Positions 2,936-28,067 of a stretch of DNA of 32,000 nucleotides are shown piece after piece. Source of the DNA: Acetohalobium arabaticum DSM 5501 (GTDB lineage Bacteria > Bacillota > Halanaerobiia > Halobacteroidales > Acetohalobiaceae). Every line of letters begins with the position of its first letter. The first letter of the stretch is position 1. Where the stretch lies: the NCBI RefSeq assembly GCF_000144695.1, contig NC_014378.1, positions 376,781-408,780 on the forward strand, read 5' to 3'. A program made the position numbers and the translations under genes. Below the pieces are notes generated by a model. The model searched no databases. It was not told the DNA's origin and was given only the letters and a program-made list of their open reading frames with translations.

Positions 2936-3529
2936 ATGATCAAAGTTGATGCTCGAGGTTTAGACTGTCCTCAGCCAGTAATTAAGACAAAAGATGCTAT
3001 AAACAAAGGAGAAAAGGTTGAAACATTGGTCGATAATAAAACAGCCTGTAAAAATTTACAGAAGTTAGGCGATAAGATGAATTGTAATGTTGAAGTGATG
3101 GAAGTGGATGATGATTTTCAATTAACCTTTATACCGGAAGAAGAACTTGTTACCTCCTCGACTACTTCCGAAGAATTAGATGATACCGGTGATAGTGGAG
3201 GGAAGGTTTACTTTATCAGCTCTGATGTAGTAGGAGAAGGAGACCAAGAATTAGGTGAAATCTTAATTAAAGGCTTTACTTATACGTTAACTGAAATAGC
3301 TCCTAAACCTAAAGCAATAGTCTTTATGAATGATGGAGTTAAGTTACCTACATTGAATGATGAAGTAATAGATAATCTGAAAATATTAGAGGAAGCAGGG
3401 ATAGAGATTATATCCTGTGGAACCTGTCTGGATTATTATGGTTTAAAGGATGAATTAGCTGTAGGAGAAGTTTCAAATATGTATACTATTGTTGAAACGT
3501 TAAATAATAATCCAGTAGTAACAGTCTAA
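2936..3529 (+). CDS. yedF: Selenium metabolism protein YedF (TusA/SirA-like N-domain plus DsrE-like C-domain)
   Basis: N-terminal ARGLDCPQPVIKTK (CPxP motif of TusA-like sulfur/selenium carriers), a C-terminal DsrE-like domain ending in CGTCLDYYG, and a position directly upstream of selD. Confidence 0.8.
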   Translation: MIKVDARGLDCPQPVIKTKDAINKGEKVETLVDNKTACKNLQKLGDKMNCNVEVMEVDDDFQLTFIPEEELVTSSTTSEELDDTGDSGGKVYFISSDVVGEGDQELGEILIKGFTYTLTEIAPKPKAIVFMNDGVKLPTLNDEVIDNLKILEEAGIEIISCGTCLDYYGLKDELAVGEVSNMYTIVETLNNNPVVTV

Positions 3530-3536
3530 AATATTA

Positions 3537-3960
3537 TTGATATATTGTTGCAGTTTAGAGTTGATATCTTGCAAACGCTCCAGAAATCAGTCCTAGTCAC
3601 TCAGCAGTAAATAAATCTTAGTGTTATGATTTAAAGATTCCGTTTTATATGTTAACTATTCTCTCTTGTGGGACTGCTTTAAAGTCGCTTTTTGCAAGAT
3701 ATCAACTAAATTATGCAAAATTATCTAAGGAAGCGTTTAAAATCAGATTAATGAAAATTCTATGCTATAAATAGTCAACATTTCTCTGGAGCGACTCTTA
3801 AAACTGACTCGGAACCAGGGATGGTGGAGAGTCAGTTTTGGATAATGAGTGAGACAGGACGTCGAACGAATGGCAAGCGTAAGAGATTTGTTGACTATAA
3901 TCTGCAATATCATGAAAGAAATTATATTAGTTGTAAATGGAAAGTGACACAATATATCAA
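3537..3960 (+). repeat. Non-coding TIR-bounded repeat element, copy S (MITE-like, 424 bp), filling the yedF-selD spacer
   Basis: The termini are TTGATATATTGTTGCAG (3537-3553) and GTGACACAATATATCAA (3944-3960), which match as inverted repeats at 14/17. The element is homologous along its length, in reverse orientation, to 27512-28067. The 45-nt end 3537-3581 is the exact reverse complement of 28023-28067. Confidence 0.7.
3771..3898 (+). ncRNA. 128-nt structured core of the repeat element; candidate structured RNA or ssDNA fold of unknown class
   Basis: Nested helices (ATAGTCAACA/TGTTGACTAT and AAAACTGACTC/GAGTCAGTTTT) are supported by compensatory changes relative to the copy at 27547-27674. 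No reading frame is conserved between the two copies. Confidence 0.4.
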
Positions 3961-4013
3961 TAAAGTTGCAATTTGTGGCCCATCAATTAATAATAGAAGG
4001 GGTGAATAAAGCA

Positions 4014-5048
4014 ATGAATGATAAAAATACATGTCAGCTAACAGCTGGAGGCGGTTGAGCAGCTAAAATAGGTCCTGAGACCTTATCGCAAGTTTTGCGA
4101 TCAGTTCCTACTGTTACTAATGAACGGGAATTAGTTGGATTAAGTACTTCTGATGATGCTTCGGTAATTAAGTTAAATGAAAAGCAAGCTTTGATCCAAT
4201 CACTGGATTTTTTTACTCCAGTAGTCGAGGATCCCTATTTATTTGGTCAGATAGCGGCTGCCAATGCTTTAAGTGATATCTATGCTATGGGCGGTGAGCC
4301 GTTGAGTGCCATGAATATTGTTGGTTTTCCTCCTGAACTCGATACTGAGATTTTAGAAAAGATTCTCCAGGGAGGAGCAGATAAAGTAAAAGAAGCAGGG
4401 GCAATTTTAGCTGGCGGCCATACTATTGAGGATGAAGAGACTAAATATGGTCTTTCTGCCAGTGGCTTAGTGGCTCCAGCAGATATGGTATCAAATGCGG
4501 GAGCTGAGCCGGGAGATAAGCTGGTACTAACTAAACCGCTTGGAATCGGAATTGCTGTGACTGCTATTAACGGAGGTTTAAGTCCTGGAGGTGAAAATAG
4601 TCCGGCTATTCAGGAAATGTTAACTCTGAATAAAGATGCAGCCGAAGTTATGCAGAAAATAGGAGTTAATGCTGCTACTGATGTAACAGGTTTTGGTTTA
4701 TTAGGCCATCTTTGGGAGTTAGTATCGGCCAGTGGAGTACAGGCTGTAGTTAACTTTTCAACCATTCCATTACTGTCTGAAGTAATAGAATGGGCTGAGA
4801 TGGGCTTAGTACCTGGCGGTGCTTATAGTAATCAGGAGTATATTAATGAACATATAGACTTTACAGCTGGATTTGAAGAAGCGAAGCAGAATGTATTATT
4901 TGATCCTCAGACTTCCGGCGGGCTTTTAATTTCGGTTACTGCTGACAAGGCTGATAAATTAGAAATTGCTTTACAGAAGAAAGGAGTAACTTCTGCTATT
5001 ATTGGGCGGATTGAGTCTGGAGAAGCTGCAATTAAGGTGAAAGAATAA
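4014..5048 (+). CDS. selD: Selenide, water dikinase (selenophosphate synthetase), selenocysteine-containing form; TGA at 4056-4058 is read as Sec
   Basis: ATG at 4014 follows the RBS GAAGGGG and is in frame with track ORF 4095-5048 (81 nt upstream). It translates as MNDKNTCQLTAGGG-U-AAKIGPETLSQVL, which aligns with the E. coli SelD motif SHGAGCGCKISPKVL, placing Sec at the catalytic Cys17 position. The rest of the protein is a typical SelD (DFFTPVVEDPYLFGQIAAANALSDIYAMGG, TDVTGFGLLGH, DPQTSGGLL). Confidence 0.9.
4059..4101 (+). promoter_or_regulatory. Candidate SECIS region downstream of the selD UGA
   Basis: There are two hairpins after the UGA. The first is AGGUC-CUGA-GACCU (4070-4083) and can be extended with a bulged U. 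The second is AUCGCAA-GUU-UUGCGAU (4085-4101). Either lies within the usual distance of a bacterial SECIS apical loop from the UGA. Confidence 0.45.
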
Positions 5049-5130
5049 AAGATAATCAACAGCAGGATTCATACGCGCTGTCATTTTAAACCAGAAGAAT
5101 TGCAACGGTAGATCGAAATTAATATCTGTT

Positions 5131-5173
5131 AAACAGCAACTATCAATCTTTGGTAGTTGTTGTTTGTTTTTTT
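5131..5173 (+). terminator. Rho-independent terminator of selD
   Basis: 14-bp stem AAACAGCAACTATC (5131-5144) / GGTAGTTGTTGTTT (5152-5165) with two G:U pairs, followed by GTTTTTTT. Confidence 0.75.
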
Positions 5174-5218
5174 GGAGCTTTTGCAAGATATCAACTCTAC
5201 ACTGCAACATTTTATAAT
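5174..5218 (+). repeat. Solo terminal segment of the repeat family
   Basis: GGAGCTTTTGCAAGATATCAACTCTACACTGCAACA matches the element end at 28023-28058 at 34/36. It is inverted relative to 3546-3581. Confidence 0.6.
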
Positions 5219-5369
5219 TTCTACTCCAACTTGCTTACTTAAGCTATTAAGGTCGGTAAAGAGTTGAAAGAAATATTATTTTTTGACGTATAAAACTAAC
5301 TTCATTAAGAGATAATATTTATAAGGCTGAAGAAATGATTTACTGGAAATCCAAGTTGGAGGTGGAAGT

Positions 5370-6126: not shown

Positions 6127-6318
6127 TATTTTAGGATAAATAGTAAAGAACCCACCCTTATTTATATGGGTGATGAATTTACTACCTATTCTTTGATTCA
6201 ATATCAAAGAATAGGTTATTTTTTGTTTAAATATTAACTATATGTAATTGTATTAAGCCTTGATATTATTGTTATCCAAGGCATTATATGATATACTATA
6301 TATAAAAGGTGATAACAA

Positions 6319-6393
6319 TTGAGTAACCAAAATAATCTAATTCATGCTAGAACATGTGTTTATAATGTTGGCTATCATAAGGAGGTGAGCTAA
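6319..6393 (+). pseudogene. tnpA: Vestigial 5' fragment of a Y1 transposase gene (tnpA)
   Basis: TTG start with RBS AAAGGTGA. It translates as MSNQNNLIHARTCVYNVGYHKEVS*. The H-x-R...Y-x-x-x-YH pattern resembles the N-terminus of IS200/IS605 TnpA (for example ..LAHTRWNCKYHIVF..). The stop TAA abuts the tnpB TTG start. Confidence 0.4.
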
Positions 6394-7695
6394 TTGAAGT
6401 TAGCTAAATATTTTATTCATAAACCTAATCAAATCCAACAAGTTGTATTAGGTTGTTTAGCCTATGCTAGTGCCAGATTATATAATATCGGCAATTATCA
6501 ACGTAAAAACTGGTCTAAAGATAGTGATGAAGATTATCCTGATTGGTATAAACAAAAAAAGCAATTAAAAGATAACTTTTGGTATAAAAACTTACCCTCC
6601 CAGACAGCACAGGAAACACTTAAAATTTTATCTGATAACTGGGATAGTTTTTATCAAAGTATGGAGGATTATCAAGATAATCCTGATAAATATAACGGCA
6701 ACCCTAATCCACCTAACTATAAATCTAAAGATAGTAAATTTAACTTCCGTTATCTTAATAATGGTTTTAAAATTATTGATGGTAAGTTAAGATTATCTAT
6801 CCCTAAACAATTAAAAAAGTATTTAAAAGAGGAATACTCTATTACTAACAAATTCTTATGGATAAGAGTGCCTAATGAGCTGTTATCCAGTAATAGAGAT
6901 ATCCTTAACTCAACTACTAGAATTGAGTTTAAACCTTTAAGTGATGATACTTATAAGGTAATCTTAACTTATAAAGTAGATACACCAACTATTAAAGAAG
7001 ATAACGGTAATTATTTAAGTATTGATCTAGGCATTAATAATTTAATGACCTGTTACAGCAATCAAAATCAGGAGAGCTTTATTATTGATGGCGGACAGTA
7101 TTTAGCTATTAATCGTTACTTCGACAAACAGATTAAACATTATCAATCTATTTTGAATGGTCAAGGTAAAAAGACTTCTAAACGTATCCAACAATTATAT
7201 AAGAAACGACGCAAGCAGCTGTTTCATTTAATCCATAGTGCTACTAAAAAAGTAGTTAATTACTGTATTGAAAATAATATATCTAGAGTAATCGTTGGTA
7301 ATATAAAAAATATTCGTGATGATGCTGATCTAGGTAAACAGACTAATCAAAAACTACATAAACTACCTTTTGATATTATCTATCACCAACTAGAGTATAA
7401 ACTTCATTTACAAGGGATTACCTTAATTAAGAAGAGTGAGAAATATACCAGCCAATGCAGCCCTTACAGTAAAAAAGTAACTAAGAAATATGGTAATAAA
7501 TCTAATCGTATTAAGCGAGGTTTATATGTAGATGAAGATAACAATCAAGCTTTTAATGCCGATAGTGTGGGTGCATTTAATATCTTACGCAAATATTTAC
7601 AGCAGCGACGTAAAGGTAAAGATATTACTCTGCAGGTTAAAGGCTTATCAAATCCAGTTATATTTAACTGGAATAATCATCAATTTGCAGCTTAA
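6394..7695 (+). CDS. tnpB: TnpB-like protein (IS605 OrfB family, RNA-guided nuclease family), atypical
   Basis: RBS AAGGAGGTGA and a TTG start. It has RuvC-I (LSIDLGINNLMTC), YTSQ.C, and RuvC-III (FNADSVGAFNI). The usual CxxC...CxxC zinc finger is absent. The usual hhhEDL RuvC-II motif reads VIVGNI. Confidence 0.85.
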   Translation: MKLAKYFIHKPNQIQQVVLGCLAYASARLYNIGNYQRKNWSKDSDEDYPDWYKQKKQLKDNFWYKNLPSQTAQETLKILSDNWDSFYQSMEDYQDNPDKYNGNPNPPNYKSKDSKFNFRYLNNGFKIIDGKLRLSIPKQLKKYLKEEYSITNKFLWIRVPNELLSSNRDILNSTTRIEFKPLSDDTYKVILTYKVDTPTIKEDNGNYLSIDLGINNLMTCYSNQNQESFIIDGGQYLAINRYFDKQIKHYQSILNGQGKKTSKRIQQLYKKRRKQLFHLIHSATKKVVNYCIENNISRVIVGNIKNIRDDADLGKQTNQKLHKLPFDIIYHQLEYKLHLQGITLIKKSEKYTSQCSPYSKKVTKKYGNKSNRIKRGLYVDEDNNQAFNADSVGAFNILRKYLQQRRKGKDITLQVKGLSNPVIFNWNNHQFAA

Positions 7696-7855
7696 AAGTA
7701 CCTCTAAGTCCAATATTAACTGGATAGGAGTATTGGCGTTGGACACGCCGATTGGGTAACTTGCTTGATATTACGGGTAACTCCCATAAAAGCAGGCGAC
7801 CATGAAGCTCGGTATTTCAATGCCGAGTAGTTCACAAGCGAATGACAAGCGAAAT
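7640..7855 (+). ncRNA. Candidate omega (right-end) RNA of the TnpB element; approximate extent
   Basis: By analogy with TnpB systems, the guide RNA overlaps the tnpB 3' end and the right end. Hairpins GGCGT-TGGAC-ACGCC and CTCGGTA-TTTCAA-TGCCGAG are present, followed by TAGTTCAC. The putative guide would start near 7836. There is no direct evidence of transcription. Confidence 0.35.
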
Positions 7856-8102
7856 ATATGTTGATACTATTCTTTGCCTAATAAAAATTACTAATATATT
7901 ATCGTTTTATATAAGTATTTACTTATATAAAAAACAAATTACAGACTGGATAAGCTTTTACATTGTTTAAATAATTAATTACTTATACATGCTATAATTA
8001 ATTACAATATAAGGAAAAGAAGGGATTAAGGTTCTACTGTGGAAATATTATAATACAAGCTATAAAAAAATACTATAAAAAATAAATTTAAATATTAAAT
8101 AT

Positions 8103-8174
8103 GGAGGATTGATCGGAAAGATCACATAGGCTCTAACCCTATGCAGCCGGGTGTAACTCCCGGATCCTCCGCCA
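8103..8174 (+). tRNA. pylT: tRNA-Pyl (anticodon CUA, amber suppressor), CCA encoded
   Basis: The cloverleaf folds as follows:
- acceptor GGAGGAT (8103-8109) / ATCCTCC (8164-8170);
- one nt between the acceptor and D stems;
- D stem GATC/GATC with a 5-nt loop;
- 6-bp anticodon stem CATAGG/CCTATG;
- loop CUCUAAC with CUA at 8133-8135;
- 3-nt variable loop;
- T loop UGUAACU without T-psi-C;
- discriminator G.
It is close to the Methanosarcina and Desulfitobacterium tRNA-Pyl sequences recalled from the literature. Confidence 0.92.
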
Positions 8175-8215: not shown

Positions 8216-8361
8216 AAGTTTTAATTATATTTTTGCTGGAAAAGACTATAAAATAAAAACTATAGAGGAGGGATAATAAAATAAGATAGCTTTTAAATGG
8301 GATTAACAGAAAGAGTTTAAAGCGTAATGAACTAAAATTTTTAACAGAAAGGGTGAGATAT

Positions 8362-9822
8362 ATGACCATCAGAAATTCACGATCTTATTATCCCAACAAA
8401 ACTGGTTTTAGTGTTGATATGTTTACTGATGAAGAGTTAGAAGAGATTCATTTAGCTACACTAGAAATGTTATGGGATAATGGAATGCATGTTACAAATG
8501 AAGAAGCACTGGATATCTTTGCTGATGCTGGAGCTAAGGTTAATCGTAGCGAAGGGAAAGTTAGAATTCCTCCTTATATGGTAGAGGATGCTATTAAGTC
8601 CGCTCCACCTCAAATTTTAATGGCTGGACGTGACCCAGAAAATGATGTGGTAATTGGAGGTAGTCGAGTCAACTTTACGACCTTTGGAGCTGGAGTTAAG
8701 ATAGAAGACTTAGAAACAGGAGGATTAAGAGATACTCTTAAACAGGATGTAGCAGACACTGCTTTAGTAGCAGATTATCTTGATCAGATTGATATTTATT
8801 CTCATGCAGTAACAGGGGGGGACTCTCCTGATGCAAATATTGATCTGCATGATGCTGAGGCCTTCTTGAATAATACTACTAAGCATTGTCATCATATTGA
8901 TTTAACTTGTGGTGAAAATGCGAAAAAGTATTTTGAAATGGGTGCCGCTATTATGGGCGGTATGGATGAATTAAGAGAGAGACCTATTATTTCTGGTTTG
9001 GTCTGTCCACAGAGTCCTCTTGAATTGCATGGAGATGCTGCTCAGATTATTATTGAACATGCACGGGCTGGTATTCCGGTTAATGTATTATCCATGGCTA
9101 TGTCGGGAGCTACTTGTCCAGTATCTGTAGCAGGGACTTTGGTAGACCATAATGCCGAGGTGCTAACAGGAGTTATCCTAACTCAGCTAGTCAATAAAGG
9201 AGCACCAGTAATTTACGGTAGTTCTACCACGACTTTTGATTTACAGCATTCTACTGCGCCTGTAGGTGCTCCAGAACTAGGGATGTGTAATGCAGGAGTA
9301 GCTAAGTTGGCTCGTTATTACAACTTACCTAGTTATACTGCAGGTGGCTAGGCGGACAGCAAGTTATGTGACGTACAATCCGGATATGAAAAGACTATGA
9401 CTTATATGCTGCCAGCTATGGCAGGTGCTAACGTGCTTTACGGCTCAGGAATGATAGAGTTAGGAGTAACCTTCAGCTATACTCAGCTTATGATCGATAA
9501 TGAGATAGCTAGAATGGTAAGAAGAGTAATCAATGGTGTAGAAGTTAACGATGAAACTCTTGCTACTGATATAATGAAGGAGGTTGGCTGTGGAGGAAAC
9601 TTCCTTACTCAGCAGCATACATTAGACCTTATGGACCAGGAACAGTCTAGATCTGATCTCTTCGATAGAAAGATGAGAGAAGGTTGGGAGAATGACGGTT
9701 CTCAAGGTGCTGCTGAAAAAGCTACTGAAAGAGCAAAAACAATTCTTAATGACCATACTCCTGAGCCGTTAGATCAAGAGGTTCAAGATAAATTAAGTGA
9801 AATCGTAGAAAGTGTTAAGTAA
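8362..9822 (+). CDS. mttB: Trimethylamine:corrinoid methyltransferase, with the in-frame TAG (9349-9351) decoded as pyrrolysine
   Basis: Track ORFs 8353-9351 and 9397-9822 share one frame (1044 nt offset) and are separated only by the TAG. The joined protein is about 486-489 aa with ...YNLPSYTAGG-O-ADSKLCDVQSGYEK..., which matches the position of Pyl in MttB (about residue 334). ATG 8362 is preferred over GTG 8353 because of the RBS AAAGGGTGAG. Confidence 0.9.
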
Positions 9823-14972: not shown

Positions 14973-16145
14973 GTGCGAAGAATTGCTATAATAGGTGGGG
15001 GATTACAGGGAATTGAAGTTACTTATCTGGCACAGAAGGCCGGATATAAAGTGCTGTTAATCGATAAAAGAAGGGATGTTCCGGCCTTTAATTTGGCAGA
15101 TGAGACTATAATCTGTGATATAATGAAAGAAAAGGAGAAGTTTAAGGAGAGTTTAGATGGTGTAGATTTAATTCTGCCTACTACCGAGAATAATGCAGCT
15201 TTACAGACATTAAAGAGTATGGATTCTAAGATAGACATTCCTATTGTATTTGACTGGGCTGCCTATCAGATTACTAATTCTAAAGAGAAATCAAAGAAAT
15301 TATTCAGTGAATATGATATTCCTCAGGCTGATTTATGGCCTAAAGCAGACTTTCCTTTGATCATTAAACCTAGCTCTGCTAGCGGTAGTCAAGAGGTGCA
15401 TAGGGCAGAAAATAAGCAGGAATTGGATGAAGTATTAACTAATCTGAAAGCAGCAGAAAGTGATCTAATTATCGAAGAATATCTTCCAGGACCTTCCTAT
15501 TCTATCGAGGTAATTGGCTATCAGGATCAGATATTGCCTTTGGTAACTACTTATTTAGATTTTGATGTTGATTATGACTGTAGACAGGTGATTTCCACTG
15601 ATAATTTAGAATTCATTGATACAGAACTAAGGGAGAGATTAAATGAATTAAGCAGTAAGATTGCTAAAAAGATCGGGCTCAATGGGATTATGGATCTGGA
15701 AGTGATCAGAGGCGAGAATGATATAAAGGTATTAGAAATCGATGCCCGCTTTCCCAGCCAGACTCCGATTACAGTCTTCTGGGCTACTGGTTTAAATATG
15801 GTGGAACTGTTGGTTAAGCTCTATTTAGAGGAAGGAATAGAGCCTGAATCCAAAGATTCATTCTCGGAGAATAAATCAGTCATTTATGAACATATTAAGA
15901 TGCAGAATGAAGTTTTAGAGGTCTGTGGAGAACATATTATTTCTCGAAGTACAGATTTAAGGCTGGAGAGGGACTTCTTTGGAGCTGTTGAAGCGATAAC
16001 CAATTATGGTTTTAGAAAGCAAGAATGGGTAGCTACTTTAATTTTTACTGCCGATTCTTTGGTAGAAGCATTTAAACAGAGAGATCGAACTTTAAATAAA
16101 ATTAGTGAAATAAATTCGTTATCTAAAACTAAAGTAAAGAGGTGA
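14973..16145 (+). CDS. pylC: 3-methylornithine--L-lysine ligase (ATP-grasp)
   Basis: N-terminal IAIIGGGLQGIEVTYLAQKAGYKVLLIDK, ATP-grasp body (LIIKPSSASGSQ..., LEIDARFPSQTP), and a position between pylB and pylD. Confidence 0.88.
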   Translation: MRRIAIIGGGLQGIEVTYLAQKAGYKVLLIDKRRDVPAFNLADETIICDIMKEKEKFKESLDGVDLILPTTENNAALQTLKSMDSKIDIPIVFDWAAYQITNSKEKSKKLFSEYDIPQADLWPKADFPLIIKPSSASGSQEVHRAENKQELDEVLTNLKAAESDLIIEEYLPGPSYSIEVIGYQDQILPLVTTYLDFDVDYDCRQVISTDNLEFIDTELRERLNELSSKIAKKIGLNGIMDLEVIRGENDIKVLEIDARFPSQTPITVFWATGLNMVELLVKLYLEEGIEPESKDSFSENKSVIYEHIKMQNEVLEVCGEHIISRSTDLRLERDFFGAVEAITNYGFRKQEWVATLIFTADSLVEAFKQRDRTLNKISEINSLSKTKVKR

Positions 16146-25677: not shown

Positions 25678-27387
25678 TTAATTCTGTTTTGCAAGTAGTT
25701 CTTTTATTTTAGGAACTGGATTATCGGCATTAATCTTTAGTTTTTCATCTGTTTGGCGTAATTTAATTTCGAGCTTATTGTCTTCAAGTGAATTCTTTCC
25801 GATAATAACCTGGATTGGACAGCCGATTAAGTCAGCATCATTGAATTTAACGCCGGCTCGTTCACTGCGGTCATCATATAAAGCTTCCAGTCCTGTTTGG
25901 TTTAGTGCTGTATAGAGGTCTTCACTGACTCTTTTTATTTCTTCATCATTTCCTAATTGCATTATATGGACTGAGTATGGAGCAATGGATTTAGGCCAGA
26001 TAATGCCGTAATCATCGTGATTCTGTTCAATAGCAGCAGCAACTGTTCGAGTTACGCCGATGCCATAACAGCCCATAAAAATTGACTGGCTTTTACCATT
26101 ATCATCAATATAGGTTGCTTTCATAGAATCGCTGTATTTAGTGCCTAGTTTAAAGACTTGTCCAACTTCGATTCCTCTAGTCATAGTCAGTTCAGCACCA
26201 CAGTCAATACAGGGTTCTCCTTCTTTGATTTCTCTTATATCAACTATTGCATCTACAGTAAAATCGCGTTCAGGATTGACATTGGTATAGTGATAGTCAG
26301 CTTCGTTGGCTCCGGTAACTCCATTAACTACAGCCATAGCTGATGGGTCAGCAATTACTCTGACTTCATCAGGAATATCAACAGGACCAGCAAATCCGGT
26401 TACAATTCCTGTATCATTAAAAAGTTCTTCTGCTGGAGCCATTTCTAAAGCGGCTGTTCCTAAGAAGTTTCTTAACTTAACTTCATTAAGCTGATAATCT
26501 CCTCTGACTAAAGCTAAAACATAGCCGTCTTGAGTCTGATAGATTAAGCTTTTAAGCAGCTTTTTAGTCGAACAGTTAAAGAATTCGGCTAAGTCTTCAA
26601 TAGTATCAGCACCAGGTGTTTCTACCTTTTCTAATTCTTGTGGTTTATCATCAGTAGTAGTGAATTCAATATCTGAATCGGCCAGTTCTAGATTAGCAGA
26701 ATAATCACATTCACTACAGAAGACTACTGTGTCTTCGCCGGAATCAGCCAGCACCATAAATTCATGGGAATCTGTACCGCCAATTGGTCCATTGTCAGCT
26801 ACAACGGTTCTAAAGTCCAGACCGCATCTATCAAAGATCTCTACATATGAATCATACATTTTCTCATAACTTTCGTCTAAAGATTCTTTATCAGGATTGA
26901 AGCTGTAAGCATCTTTCATAATGAATTCCCGACTGCGTAAGACTCCAAATCGAGGCCTGATTTCATCTCTGAATTTAGTCTGGATCTGATAAAGATTAAA
27001 AGGGAGATCTTTATAGGAGCGCACTTCGTCTTTAATTAAATCAGTTATCACTTCTTCGTGAGTGGGTCCCAAACAGAAGTCTCTTTTATGTCTGTCCTCA
27101 AGACGCATTAGTTCCGGACCGTAGTCAGCCCACCGATTGGATTCTTTCCATAATTCAGCTGGCTGTAAAGCAGGCAGTAGTACTTCCTGAGCTCCTGCTT
27201 TATTCATCTCTTCTCTTATAATATCTTCTACTTTTTGAATAACTTTATAACCTAAAGGCAGGTGAGAATAGATTCCTGAACCTAACTTTCTCATTAATCC
27301 TGCTCTAAGCATTAACTGATGGCTGACTACTTCAGCATCAGCTGGAGTTTCTTTTAATGTTGGTGAATACATCTGTGACATCTTCAT
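25678..27387 (-). CDS. proS: Prolyl-tRNA synthetase (bacterial type with INS editing domain)
   Basis: 569 aa with class II motifs (FRDEIRPRFGVLRSREF, GCYGIGVTR) and a central insertion domain, which is the typical bacterial ProRS architecture. Confidence 0.92.
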   Translation of the reverse strand: MKMSQMYSPTLKETPADAEVVSHQLMLRAGLMRKLGSGIYSHLPLGYKVIQKVEDIIREEMNKAGAQEVLLPALQPAELWKESNRWADYGPELMRLEDRHKRDFCLGPTHEEVITDLIKDEVRSYKDLPFNLYQIQTKFRDEIRPRFGVLRSREFIMKDAYSFNPDKESLDESYEKMYDSYVEIFDRCGLDFRTVVADNGPIGGTDSHEFMVLADSGEDTVVFCSECDYSANLELADSDIEFTTTDDKPQELEKVETPGADTIEDLAEFFNCSTKKLLKSLIYQTQDGYVLALVRGDYQLNEVKLRNFLGTAALEMAPAEELFNDTGIVTGFAGPVDIPDEVRVIADPSAMAVVNGVTGANEADYHYTNVNPERDFTVDAIVDIREIKEGEPCIDCGAELTMTRGIEVGQVFKLGTKYSDSMKATYIDDNGKSQSIFMGCYGIGVTRTVAAAIEQNHDDYGIIWPKSIAPYSVHIMQLGNDEEIKRVSEDLYTALNQTGLEALYDDRSERAGVKFNDADLIGCPIQVIIGKNSLEDNKLEIKLRQTDEKLKINADNPVPKIKELLAKQN

Positions 27388-27511: not shown

Positions 27512-28067
27512 TTGATATATTGTTGCACTTTCAAGATATTGCAGTGATAGTCAATATGTATCCGCCGCTTGTCGTTCGCTCAACATCCTGTTTCGCTCAC
27601 TCTCAAAAACTGGCCCTCCATCGTCCATGATTCCGGGCCAGTTTTAAGAGTCGCTCGGGACACATATTGACTATTGATAATAGATATATCACTATGGTTA
27701 TCATTAATTAGAGTTGCTATAGACGCATATTGACCATTTGCAGTATGATATTGTCATGGTATTACATTGCAATCACAGCCTGGGCTGTTTAGGAGAAAAA
27801 AGATCTGGAACAGAGAAACTTCCCAGGCTATAGTTACAGCACAAAAATTTCATTAATATGGTTTCACGTCACATCAGATTATTTTGCATAATTTTATTGT
27901 TGATATCTTGCAACAAGCGACTTTAAAGCAGCCCCATAAGAGAAAATAATTAACATATAAAGTAGGGATTCAAACTGTAGCTATAAGATTAATTTATTGC
28001 TAATTAATCAGGGCTGATTTTCGGAGCGTTTGCAAGATATCAACTCTAAACTGCAACAATATATCAA
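27512..28067 (-). repeat. Non-coding TIR-bounded repeat element, copy P (556 bp), in the divergent proS / ybgC-like spacer
   Basis: The termini are TTGATATATTGTTGCAC (27512-27528) and CTGCAACAATATATCAA (28051-28067), inverted repeats matching at 16/17. It is collinear with copy S when read on the minus strand and carries about 130 nt of extra internal sequence. Confidence 0.7.
27547..27674 (-). ncRNA. 128-nt structured core of the repeat element, copy P
   Basis: Read on the minus strand it has outer helix ATAGTCAATATGT/ACATATTGACTAT and inner helix AAAACTGGCCC/GGGCCAGTTTT. The architecture is the same as 3771-3898, with compensatory substitutions. Confidence 0.4.

Follow-up and report, generated by a model that had tools for sequence, protein, structure and literature searches.

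A candidate MITE-like repeat family with a covarying, RNA-like module in intergenic spacers of Acetohalobium

The Correia/NEMIS elements of Neisseria, the ERIC/IRU elements of enterobacteria, and the RUP and BOX elements of S. pneumoniae are bacterial MITEs that are co-transcribed and fold as RNA. Insertions of Correia and ERIC elements in operons are reported to be tolerated or used. Other described systems also bear on the repeat analyzed here. IS21, Tn7-like and Mu-type transposons have several transposase-binding repeats per end and TG...CA termini. Structured RNAs are tied to two insertion sequence groups, omega RNAs to IS200/605 elements and bridge RNAs to IS110. The core boxes of integron attC sites follow the consensus RYYYAAC/GTTRRRY.

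We analyzed a 32,000-nt stretch of the genome of Acetohalobium arabaticum DSM 5501 (the window; all positions are counted from its first nucleotide). The repeat occurs there as two full copies (A and B) and one partial copy (C), all within 25 kb. Like the Correia/NEMIS, ERIC/IRU and RUP/BOX elements, it is small, non-coding and bounded by terminal inverted repeats, or TIRs (PMC3184786, and general knowledge of these families). Those families resemble it further in being intergenic, often inside operons, in forming long stem–loops and in having an occupancy that varies between related genomes. BOX elements and BIMEs share its mosaic, modular organization. Yet no sequence relationship to the Correia, ERIC, RUP or BOX elements was found, and copy number is apparently low here, compared with the tens to hundreds given for them. 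The repeat also departs from known MITEs in lacking a TA or other target duplication, in having TIRs of ~45 bp with two internal sites, and in having one module that, unlike a simple palindrome, is branched in its fold and combines compensatory substitutions with tandem G·A motifs. In a literature search, we came across no account of this repeat.

The reading we favor, with a probability of roughly 0.6, is that A, B and C belong to a small, non-autonomous, MITE-like TIR family with a mosaic body and a fold-selected module, inserted in intergenic spacers of Acetohalobium.

Layout and ends of the three copies

Copy A (3537–3960, + strand, 424 bp) lies between a yedF-like gene (2936–3529, + strand), which encodes TusA and DsrE domains, and selD (4014–5048, + strand). 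The latter encodes AIRS domains, matches A. arabaticum SelD at 100% over its post-TGA part, and has an in-frame TGA selenocysteine codon at 4056–4058. An earlier note on this DNA had described the yedF–selD spacer as 484 bp filled by one TIR-bounded element. We reproduced both the spacer length, from the yedF-like stop at 3529 to the selD ATG at 4014, and the inverted repeats. On the + strand, A comprises a 45-nt left TIR (3537–3581), a 5′ domain (3582–3735), a 128-nt structured 3′ module (3771–3898) and a decayed right TIR (3899–3960). The left TIR holds direct TTGATATMTTG sites at 3537–3547 and 3561–3571. In the 5′ domain, an interior (3582–3690) precedes an inverted TIR copy that is internal to the element (3691–3735, site at 3695–3705) and closes a helix of 15–17 bp with the left TIR. 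The right TIR has a tip site, CAATATATCAA, at 3950–3960 and a degenerate inner site, CTGCAATATCA, at ~3903–3913. An internal inverted pair, GTTGATATCTTGCAA and TTGCAAGATATCAAC, is present in both A and B.

Copy B (27512–28067, – strand, 556 nt) has a thioesterase gene on one side and proS (25678–27387, – strand) on the other, and is wedged between two divergent promoters. Its left TIR spans 28023–28067, its 5′ domain extends to 27873, its 128-nt structured 3′ module occupies 27547–27674 and its right TIR 27512–27546, all on the – strand. Between the 5′ domain and the 3′ module lies an extra segment absent from A (27675–27872, – strand), which includes a hairpin module that we call X (AGCCTGGG...CCCAGGCT). 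The middle of B is ~160 nt longer than that of A.

Segment 3537–3581 is identical at 45 of 45 positions to the reverse complement of 28023–28067, as first reported. The homology, previously stressed for this shared end, in fact runs well beyond it: A and B align over their full length, with their parts in the same order. Identity is 100% in the left TIR, 75% in the 5′ domain interior and 76.6% in the 3′ module; the right TIR is decayed in both copies, with a deletion in B relative to A. Given ~78% identity elsewhere in the element, the chance of an identical 45-nt run is ~1e-3. In A, 3534–3556 pairs with 3941–3963 (23 nt, 87%), and in B, 27512–27531 pairs with 28048–28067 (20 nt, 95%). The imperfect inverse ends claimed earlier are therefore present, but the 17 nt then given understates them, a full TIR being ~38–45 nt and the right TIRs here being decayed. 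What was taken for a single element is indeed a bounded insertion, yet not a uniform unit; it is a mosaic of hairpin modules.

Copy C (5169–5215, – strand, 47 nt), which had been overlooked, is a third, partial copy. It is a solo TIR, inverted and 89% identical to the left TIR, with the motif at 5184–5194, and it lies just after the selD terminator (5130–5166). Exact TTGATATMTTG occurs nine times in the 32 kb, with four hits in A, four in B, one in C and none outside, which bears out its reported recurrence at both tips and at an internal inverted pair. With up to one mismatch there are 10 matches, against 2.8 expected, and 0 of 100 shuffles reached 10; the single one-mismatch hit falls outside the elements.

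The arrangement of these sites is reminiscent of IS21, Tn7-like and Mu-type ends, in that each end has two repeats of a 10–11-bp motif and tip bases 2–3 correspond to TG...CA. But there are no transposase genes and no target duplication here, and this is a resemblance only.

The sites might instead be operator or recombination-site arrays, serving a regulator or a recombinase (as in an invertible segment) and duplicated to several promoters. Each full copy has four of them, direct and inverted and exclusive to these regions, and B sits between two divergent promoters. Part of the X hairpin module (37 nt, 92%) occurs in the opposite orientation in a congener. Assemblies break at the internal inverted repeat. 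Such arrays would, however, leave unexplained the 420–560 bp of co-linear homology and the compensated multi-stem fold described below. No recombinase gene or site-specific candidate regulator is found nearby, and the adjacent GntR-family gene is also present in Sporohalobacter salinus, without any sites. Orthologous promoters of relatives likewise lack them. We consider this explanation very unlikely, and retain the reading in which the sites belong to the ends of a mobile family.

A and B have no conserved ORF in common, and a collection of 15 billion proteins contained none of the eight element ORFs looked up there. These results agree with the initial description of the element as non-coding. 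An ATG common to both copies (TTTATATGTTAA) opens a short hydrophobic ORF (3649–3774 in A; 27900–27962 in B), which has 41 aa in A and, by eye, about 20 aa in B. With no ribosome-binding site and with different ends in the two copies, this ORF is probably not a gene. Separately, a 29-nt stretch inside a pylC-like ORF (15104–15132) is 90% identical to A 3893–3921, where the 3′ module meets the right TIR; the match (E = 3e-4 within the window) is probably due to chance in AT-rich DNA.

Upstream of yedF, the two consensus promoters noted before are present and near-consensus (TTGACT-17-TATAAT at 2798–2826 and 2851–2879, 11/12 each). A promoter scan found no credible promoter for selD itself downstream of A, and no terminator was predicted inside A. 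Hence, copy A is probably transcribed. A possible selD promoter provided by the right end of the element (TTGCAA-17-AATAAT, 3966–3994) was rejected, because its start site would sit within the ribosome-binding site. At the left tip of both A and B, an extended –10 element, TGATATATT, is spaced 17 nt from a flanking –35-like hexamer; in A, the promoter-like match spans 3518–3546. A hybrid promoter at this tip is a lead, not a result.

The 128-nt module and its fold

The 128-nt module (A 3771–3898; B 27547–27674) folds into a three-way junction, with a closing stem and two hairpins. Fold z-scores are –5.5 for A and –6.9 for B, and –5.4 for the whole element. The two copies differ at 30 of 128 positions. 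Nine of the 40 base pairs are changed on both sides, and none is broken. These nine pairs account for 18 of the 30 differences, and one more is a G-C/G-U type change. When, as a control, the 3′ partners were slid by 1–3 columns, only 0–1 double-changed pairs and 29–40% pairing were obtained. The compensated pairs are distributed over four separate helices. In the second hairpin, two tandem G·A/A·G motifs are invariant while the Watson–Crick pairs around them covary, and the first, long hairpin keeps a GGA/GGA internal loop. In both copies, the fold of the module on the sense strand (the left-to-right reading, toward selD and proS) exceeds that on the antisense strand in stability by ~10 kcal/mol. 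G-U pairs are present in both the 5′ domain and the 3′ module; the consensus fold of the 5′ domain of A and B has one compensated pair and several G-U pairs.

The nine compensated pairs with none broken, the invariant G·A motifs and the better folding of the sense strand indicate selection on the module for an RNA or single-stranded fold. As judged from the two sequences, the pattern is that of RNA, with single-stranded DNA less likely. Selection had previously been placed on the ends, against an interior said to have diverged by many substitutions and indels. The ends do stand out, yet they are only half of the picture: the interior has diverged, but in the 128-nt module it has done so in a way that is not random and preserves secondary structure.

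An explanation without present function would make the copies the relic of a segmental duplication followed by gene conversion. The 45-nt identity would then be a recent conversion tract, and the compensated stems would reflect template-switch correction of quasi-palindromes. The few copies seen all lie within 25 kb, the perfect 45-mer is sharp-edged against ~76% identity elsewhere, and the region is rearranged relative to S. salinus, all as such a history might leave them. But nine compensated pairs in four helices, with invariant G·A motifs and none broken, are hard to obtain without selection, and a second species, at 90% protein identity, retains these same ends. We give this account little credence, and continue with the copies as members of a mobile family.

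Rfam searches of both copies, at gathering thresholds and at E ≤ 10, returned no match to the element, and a covariance model built from the A and B modules found no other match in the window or in the relatives' loci compared. T-box, hammerhead/twister-type ribozyme, SECIS and HEARO identities were considered by eye and dropped, there being no Rfam match at E ≤ 10.

The module also bears some likeness to an integron attC site, in being ~130 nt long with structure conserved over sequence. Its closing stem, AGTCAAC...GTTGACT, is one base off the attC boxes (6/7). Unlike attC sites, however, the two copies lie 24 kb apart in opposite orientation and inside a larger TIR element, with no cassette array and no integrase or tyrosine recombinase in the window. 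An attC identity was rejected on these grounds: boxes matching at 6/7 only, isolated opposite copies and no integrase in the window.

Relatives, mobility and the neighboring IS605 element

We compared the two loci with those of S. salinus (SelD and ProS each 86% identical), of Selenihalanaerobacter shriftii, and of a congeneric, metagenomic Acetohalobium (the congener; SelD 90%, ProS 91%). S. salinus has the same gene order (CoaE, MGS, SLT, yedF, selD ... GntR), and its thioesterase gene adjoins a divergent proS. Its yedF–selD spacer is ~47 nt and lacks the element; homology between the flank of A and this empty spacer resumes at ~3989. The S. salinus thioesterase–proS spacer measures 323 nt and shows no similarity to the element, of which no trace was found at either locus. 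In S. shriftii, the yedF–selD spacer is ~70 nt and is also empty. Thus, empty sites, which the earlier note had proposed to look for, exist at both loci in S. salinus and at yedF–selD in S. shriftii. The short distances between yedF and selD in these two genomes (~47 and ~70 nt) uphold the view that the element splits a yedF–selD operon.

The congener is occupied at both loci, with a different element interior. At selD, the right tip and, of the 5′ domain, the right arm are retained, and an X-like module plus other sequence takes the place of the 128-nt module; the module covariance model found no match there. A 37-nt portion of the X hairpin module of B occurs at this locus (92%) in the opposite orientation, with the long arm of X on the other side. 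X therefore behaves as a separate, nested or invertible inverted-repeat unit. At proS, the congener element terminates on the right in an almost perfect inverse of the left TIR, over at least 36 of its 45 nt. The true TIR of the family is accordingly put at ~38–45 bp, and its body is modular. The congener also bears on the right boundary. In A, an extension at 3961–3988 (+ strand; TAAAGTTGCAATTTG...) follows the right TIR, and these ~25–30 nt (TAAAGTTGCA...) recur in the congener at an element right end at a different locus, so that they belong to the element and blur its right edge.

The parsimonious reading of these comparisons is that insertion took place within the Acetohalobium lineage. 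Among the genomes compared, the family is genus-restricted, being found only in the two Acetohalobium genomes. With copy C in the window and both congener loci, further copies have been found as well as empty sites, and together these support a mobile repeat over a unique, locus-specific sequence. Both occupied loci are also occupied in the congener, and hence there is no evidence of recent movement.

These same comparisons weigh on the idea that the element is not mobile but a structured cis-regulatory leader or ncRNA gene of the host, with two paralogues before selD and proS, whose inverted repeats are long-range RNA helices. Both full copies are oriented toward the downstream gene, structural covariation in the module is strong and includes G-U pairs, its sense strand folds better, and the whole element folds with z = –5.4. 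In both copies, an extended –10 at the left tip is combined with a –35-like flank hexamer. A leader, however, should lie in the 5′ UTR and be conserved upstream of orthologues, and we found otherwise on both points. Between B and proS there is the proS promoter (27478–27450, – strand; TGGATA-17-TATAAT with a preceding TG). S. salinus has this promoter too, in conserved form, and B is thus upstream of it and outside the normal proS 5′ UTR. The element is absent before selD in S. salinus and S. shriftii and before proS in S. salinus, the congener lacks the 3′ module altogether at selD, and copy C consists of one end only, oppositely oriented. Nor is there an Rfam match, even at E ≤ 10. We regard a host leader or ncRNA gene as unlikely, and an inserted, MITE-like family as the better account.

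Like MITEs, the copies are small, have no coding capacity, carry TIRs, and differ in presence or absence between relatives; what MITEs have and these copies lack is a target-site duplication flanking the TIRs. A search for such duplications had been suggested, and reading the flanks revealed none recognizable at A or B. Copy A has TA on both sides and B has TG and TT, with no longer direct repeat. An exact 19-mer of the TIR had four hits in species-representative genomes, all by chance, and a metagenome pattern scan (19 specified bases plus one N) had three chance hits. Scans of viral contigs gave tandem repeats in unrelated contigs or nothing, and BLASTN against plasmids and phages gave no match. 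An autonomous element with the same TIRs, also proposed as something to look for, did not emerge from the window or from these scans of genome, metagenome, viral, plasmid and phage collections. In several independent read sets of this strain, unitigs end at the element ends (3942, 5211, 28038 and 27550): the selD unitig covers 3942–5211, from the right tip of A to C, and the proS unitig starts at 27550. At these break points, the window has no second copy of the 30-mer. Such breaks are expected of repeats, and they hint at more copies in the genome.

No transposase with these ends is encoded in the window, as had been noted. The only transposon gene there is one for an IS605-type TnpB (6394–7695), missed in the earlier note. 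It lies in an IS605-family element (6131–7870) from which tnpA has been deleted; the first ~60 nt of tnpA remain, fused to the TnpB ribosome-binding site. The exact TnpB protein of the window is absent from the read-set assemblies, which suggests a multi-copy IS. At 7696–7828 there is a weak match to sot0042, an omega-RNA-type family (E = 8e-4, below gathering).

With a TnpB gene 2.4 kb from A, the element could be a decayed or non-autonomous IS200/IS605 derivative, akin to PATEs, with the 3′ module serving as omega RNA scaffold for that TnpB. PATEs and omega-RNA ends are likewise non-coding, with a structured, RNA-like region near one end and TnpB close by. The sot0042 match falls on the right end of the TnpB element, a 77-nt alignment links the 3′ end of A to that right end at 68% identity (E = 0.12), and the tips begin with TTGAT, the target motif of ISDra2. 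This similarity is not significant, with E = 0.12 for A and 3 for B, and the covariance model of the 3′ module, run with filters off, found no match on the TnpB right end. A 35-nt resemblance (CGAATGRCAAGCG...TTGA) was accordingly discarded as evidence of an omega RNA, having E = 0.12 and being missed by the covariance model. An intact TnpA+TnpB copy in a congener defines the IS left end (TTAGGATAAATAG..., at ~6131 in the window), which has different hairpins and shares nothing with the ends of A and B. The resident IS605 was on this basis rejected as parent element. By family definition, IS200/IS605 elements lack terminal inverted repeats (PMC7290912). The element described here has TIRs of 20–45 nt. 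A PATE would have ends homologous to a resident IS and no TIRs; our element has TIRs and no significant similarity to the resident IS ends or omega-RNA region. We rate this origin as most improbable, and keep to a TIR family in its own right.

A and B (3537–28067) are inverted relative to each other and bracket 24.5 kb. This interval holds selD, C, a GntR gene, the IS605 element, a pyrrolysine cluster (pylT, mttB, mttC and pylS/B/C/D-like genes), a LysR gene, a tRNA-Leu gene, an rnf operon, an M48 peptidase gene and proS. In S. salinus, only ~9 kb of one contig separate selD from proS, and the parts of that contig compared contain no pyl or rnf genes. What the elements flank is thus a region rebuilt in Acetohalobium. 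Immediately downstream of selD (window 5049–5369), gene order breaks in each of the three genomes. Next comes GntR here; in S. salinus, a 230-aa ORF precedes GntR, and the congener has an oligopeptide-type ABC transporter. At this breakpoint lies copy C, the solo TIR. Within the pyrrolysine cluster, the tRNA-Pyl gene spans 8103–8174, and an in-frame stop divides mttB (8353–9822), where PYLIS_3 matches strongly at 9349–9448 (84 bits). Pyrrolysine and selenocysteine recoding therefore occur within 5 kb of each other. The Rfam search of both copies plus the TnpB region returned only PYLIS, a tRNA and the weak sot0042 match.

A possible mechanism and its meaning

In the MITE-like reading, the functional ends would be inverted repeats of ~38–45 bp, each with two TTGATATMTTG, and these would be putative binding sites for a transposase supplied in trans. 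The body would be a mosaic of hairpin-bounded modules, consisting of the 5′ domain, the optional X hairpin module and the 128-nt three-way junction, which may be gained, lost or exchanged between copies. Once the element is transcribed, the 128-nt module would act as RNA. At selD, it may do so within the yedF–selD transcript, or in a transcript from the candidate hybrid promoter at the left tip. Plausible roles are those of a processing, stability or protein-binding element. An RNA-level module at selD would let the insertion be tolerated or used within the operon. Alternatively, the module may be the relic of a structured region of the parent element, with A and B derived from different selected masters. 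Compensatory change is not expected of neutrally decaying MITE copies, which leaves two options: use of the module by the host, or descent of A and B from different selected masters.

A further proposal, which we hold tentatively and consider doubtful, is that the module is an RNA cargo of the TIR mobile element, whether protein-binding or a guide or scaffold, or a domain recruited by the host for control or processing at yedF–selD. If so, it would represent a new class of structured RNA spreading on a MITE, distinct from the omega RNAs and the bridge RNAs.

A MITE-like insertion is, in itself, a matter of routine genome annotation, and this one is ordinary apart from its covarying, RNA-like module. 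The insertion explains the oversized spacer within a selenium-metabolism operon, in a host known for using both selenocysteine and pyrrolysine, and the element marks a region rearranged relative to relatives. Two copies that differ at 30 of 128 positions but retain all 40 pairs and their tandem G·A motifs bear the signature of a functional RNA; the module has no Rfam match and lies in a mobile context. If more copies confirm the module, it would be an added case of a structured RNA carried by a TIR element, and would help to show how operons tolerate or exploit such insertions.
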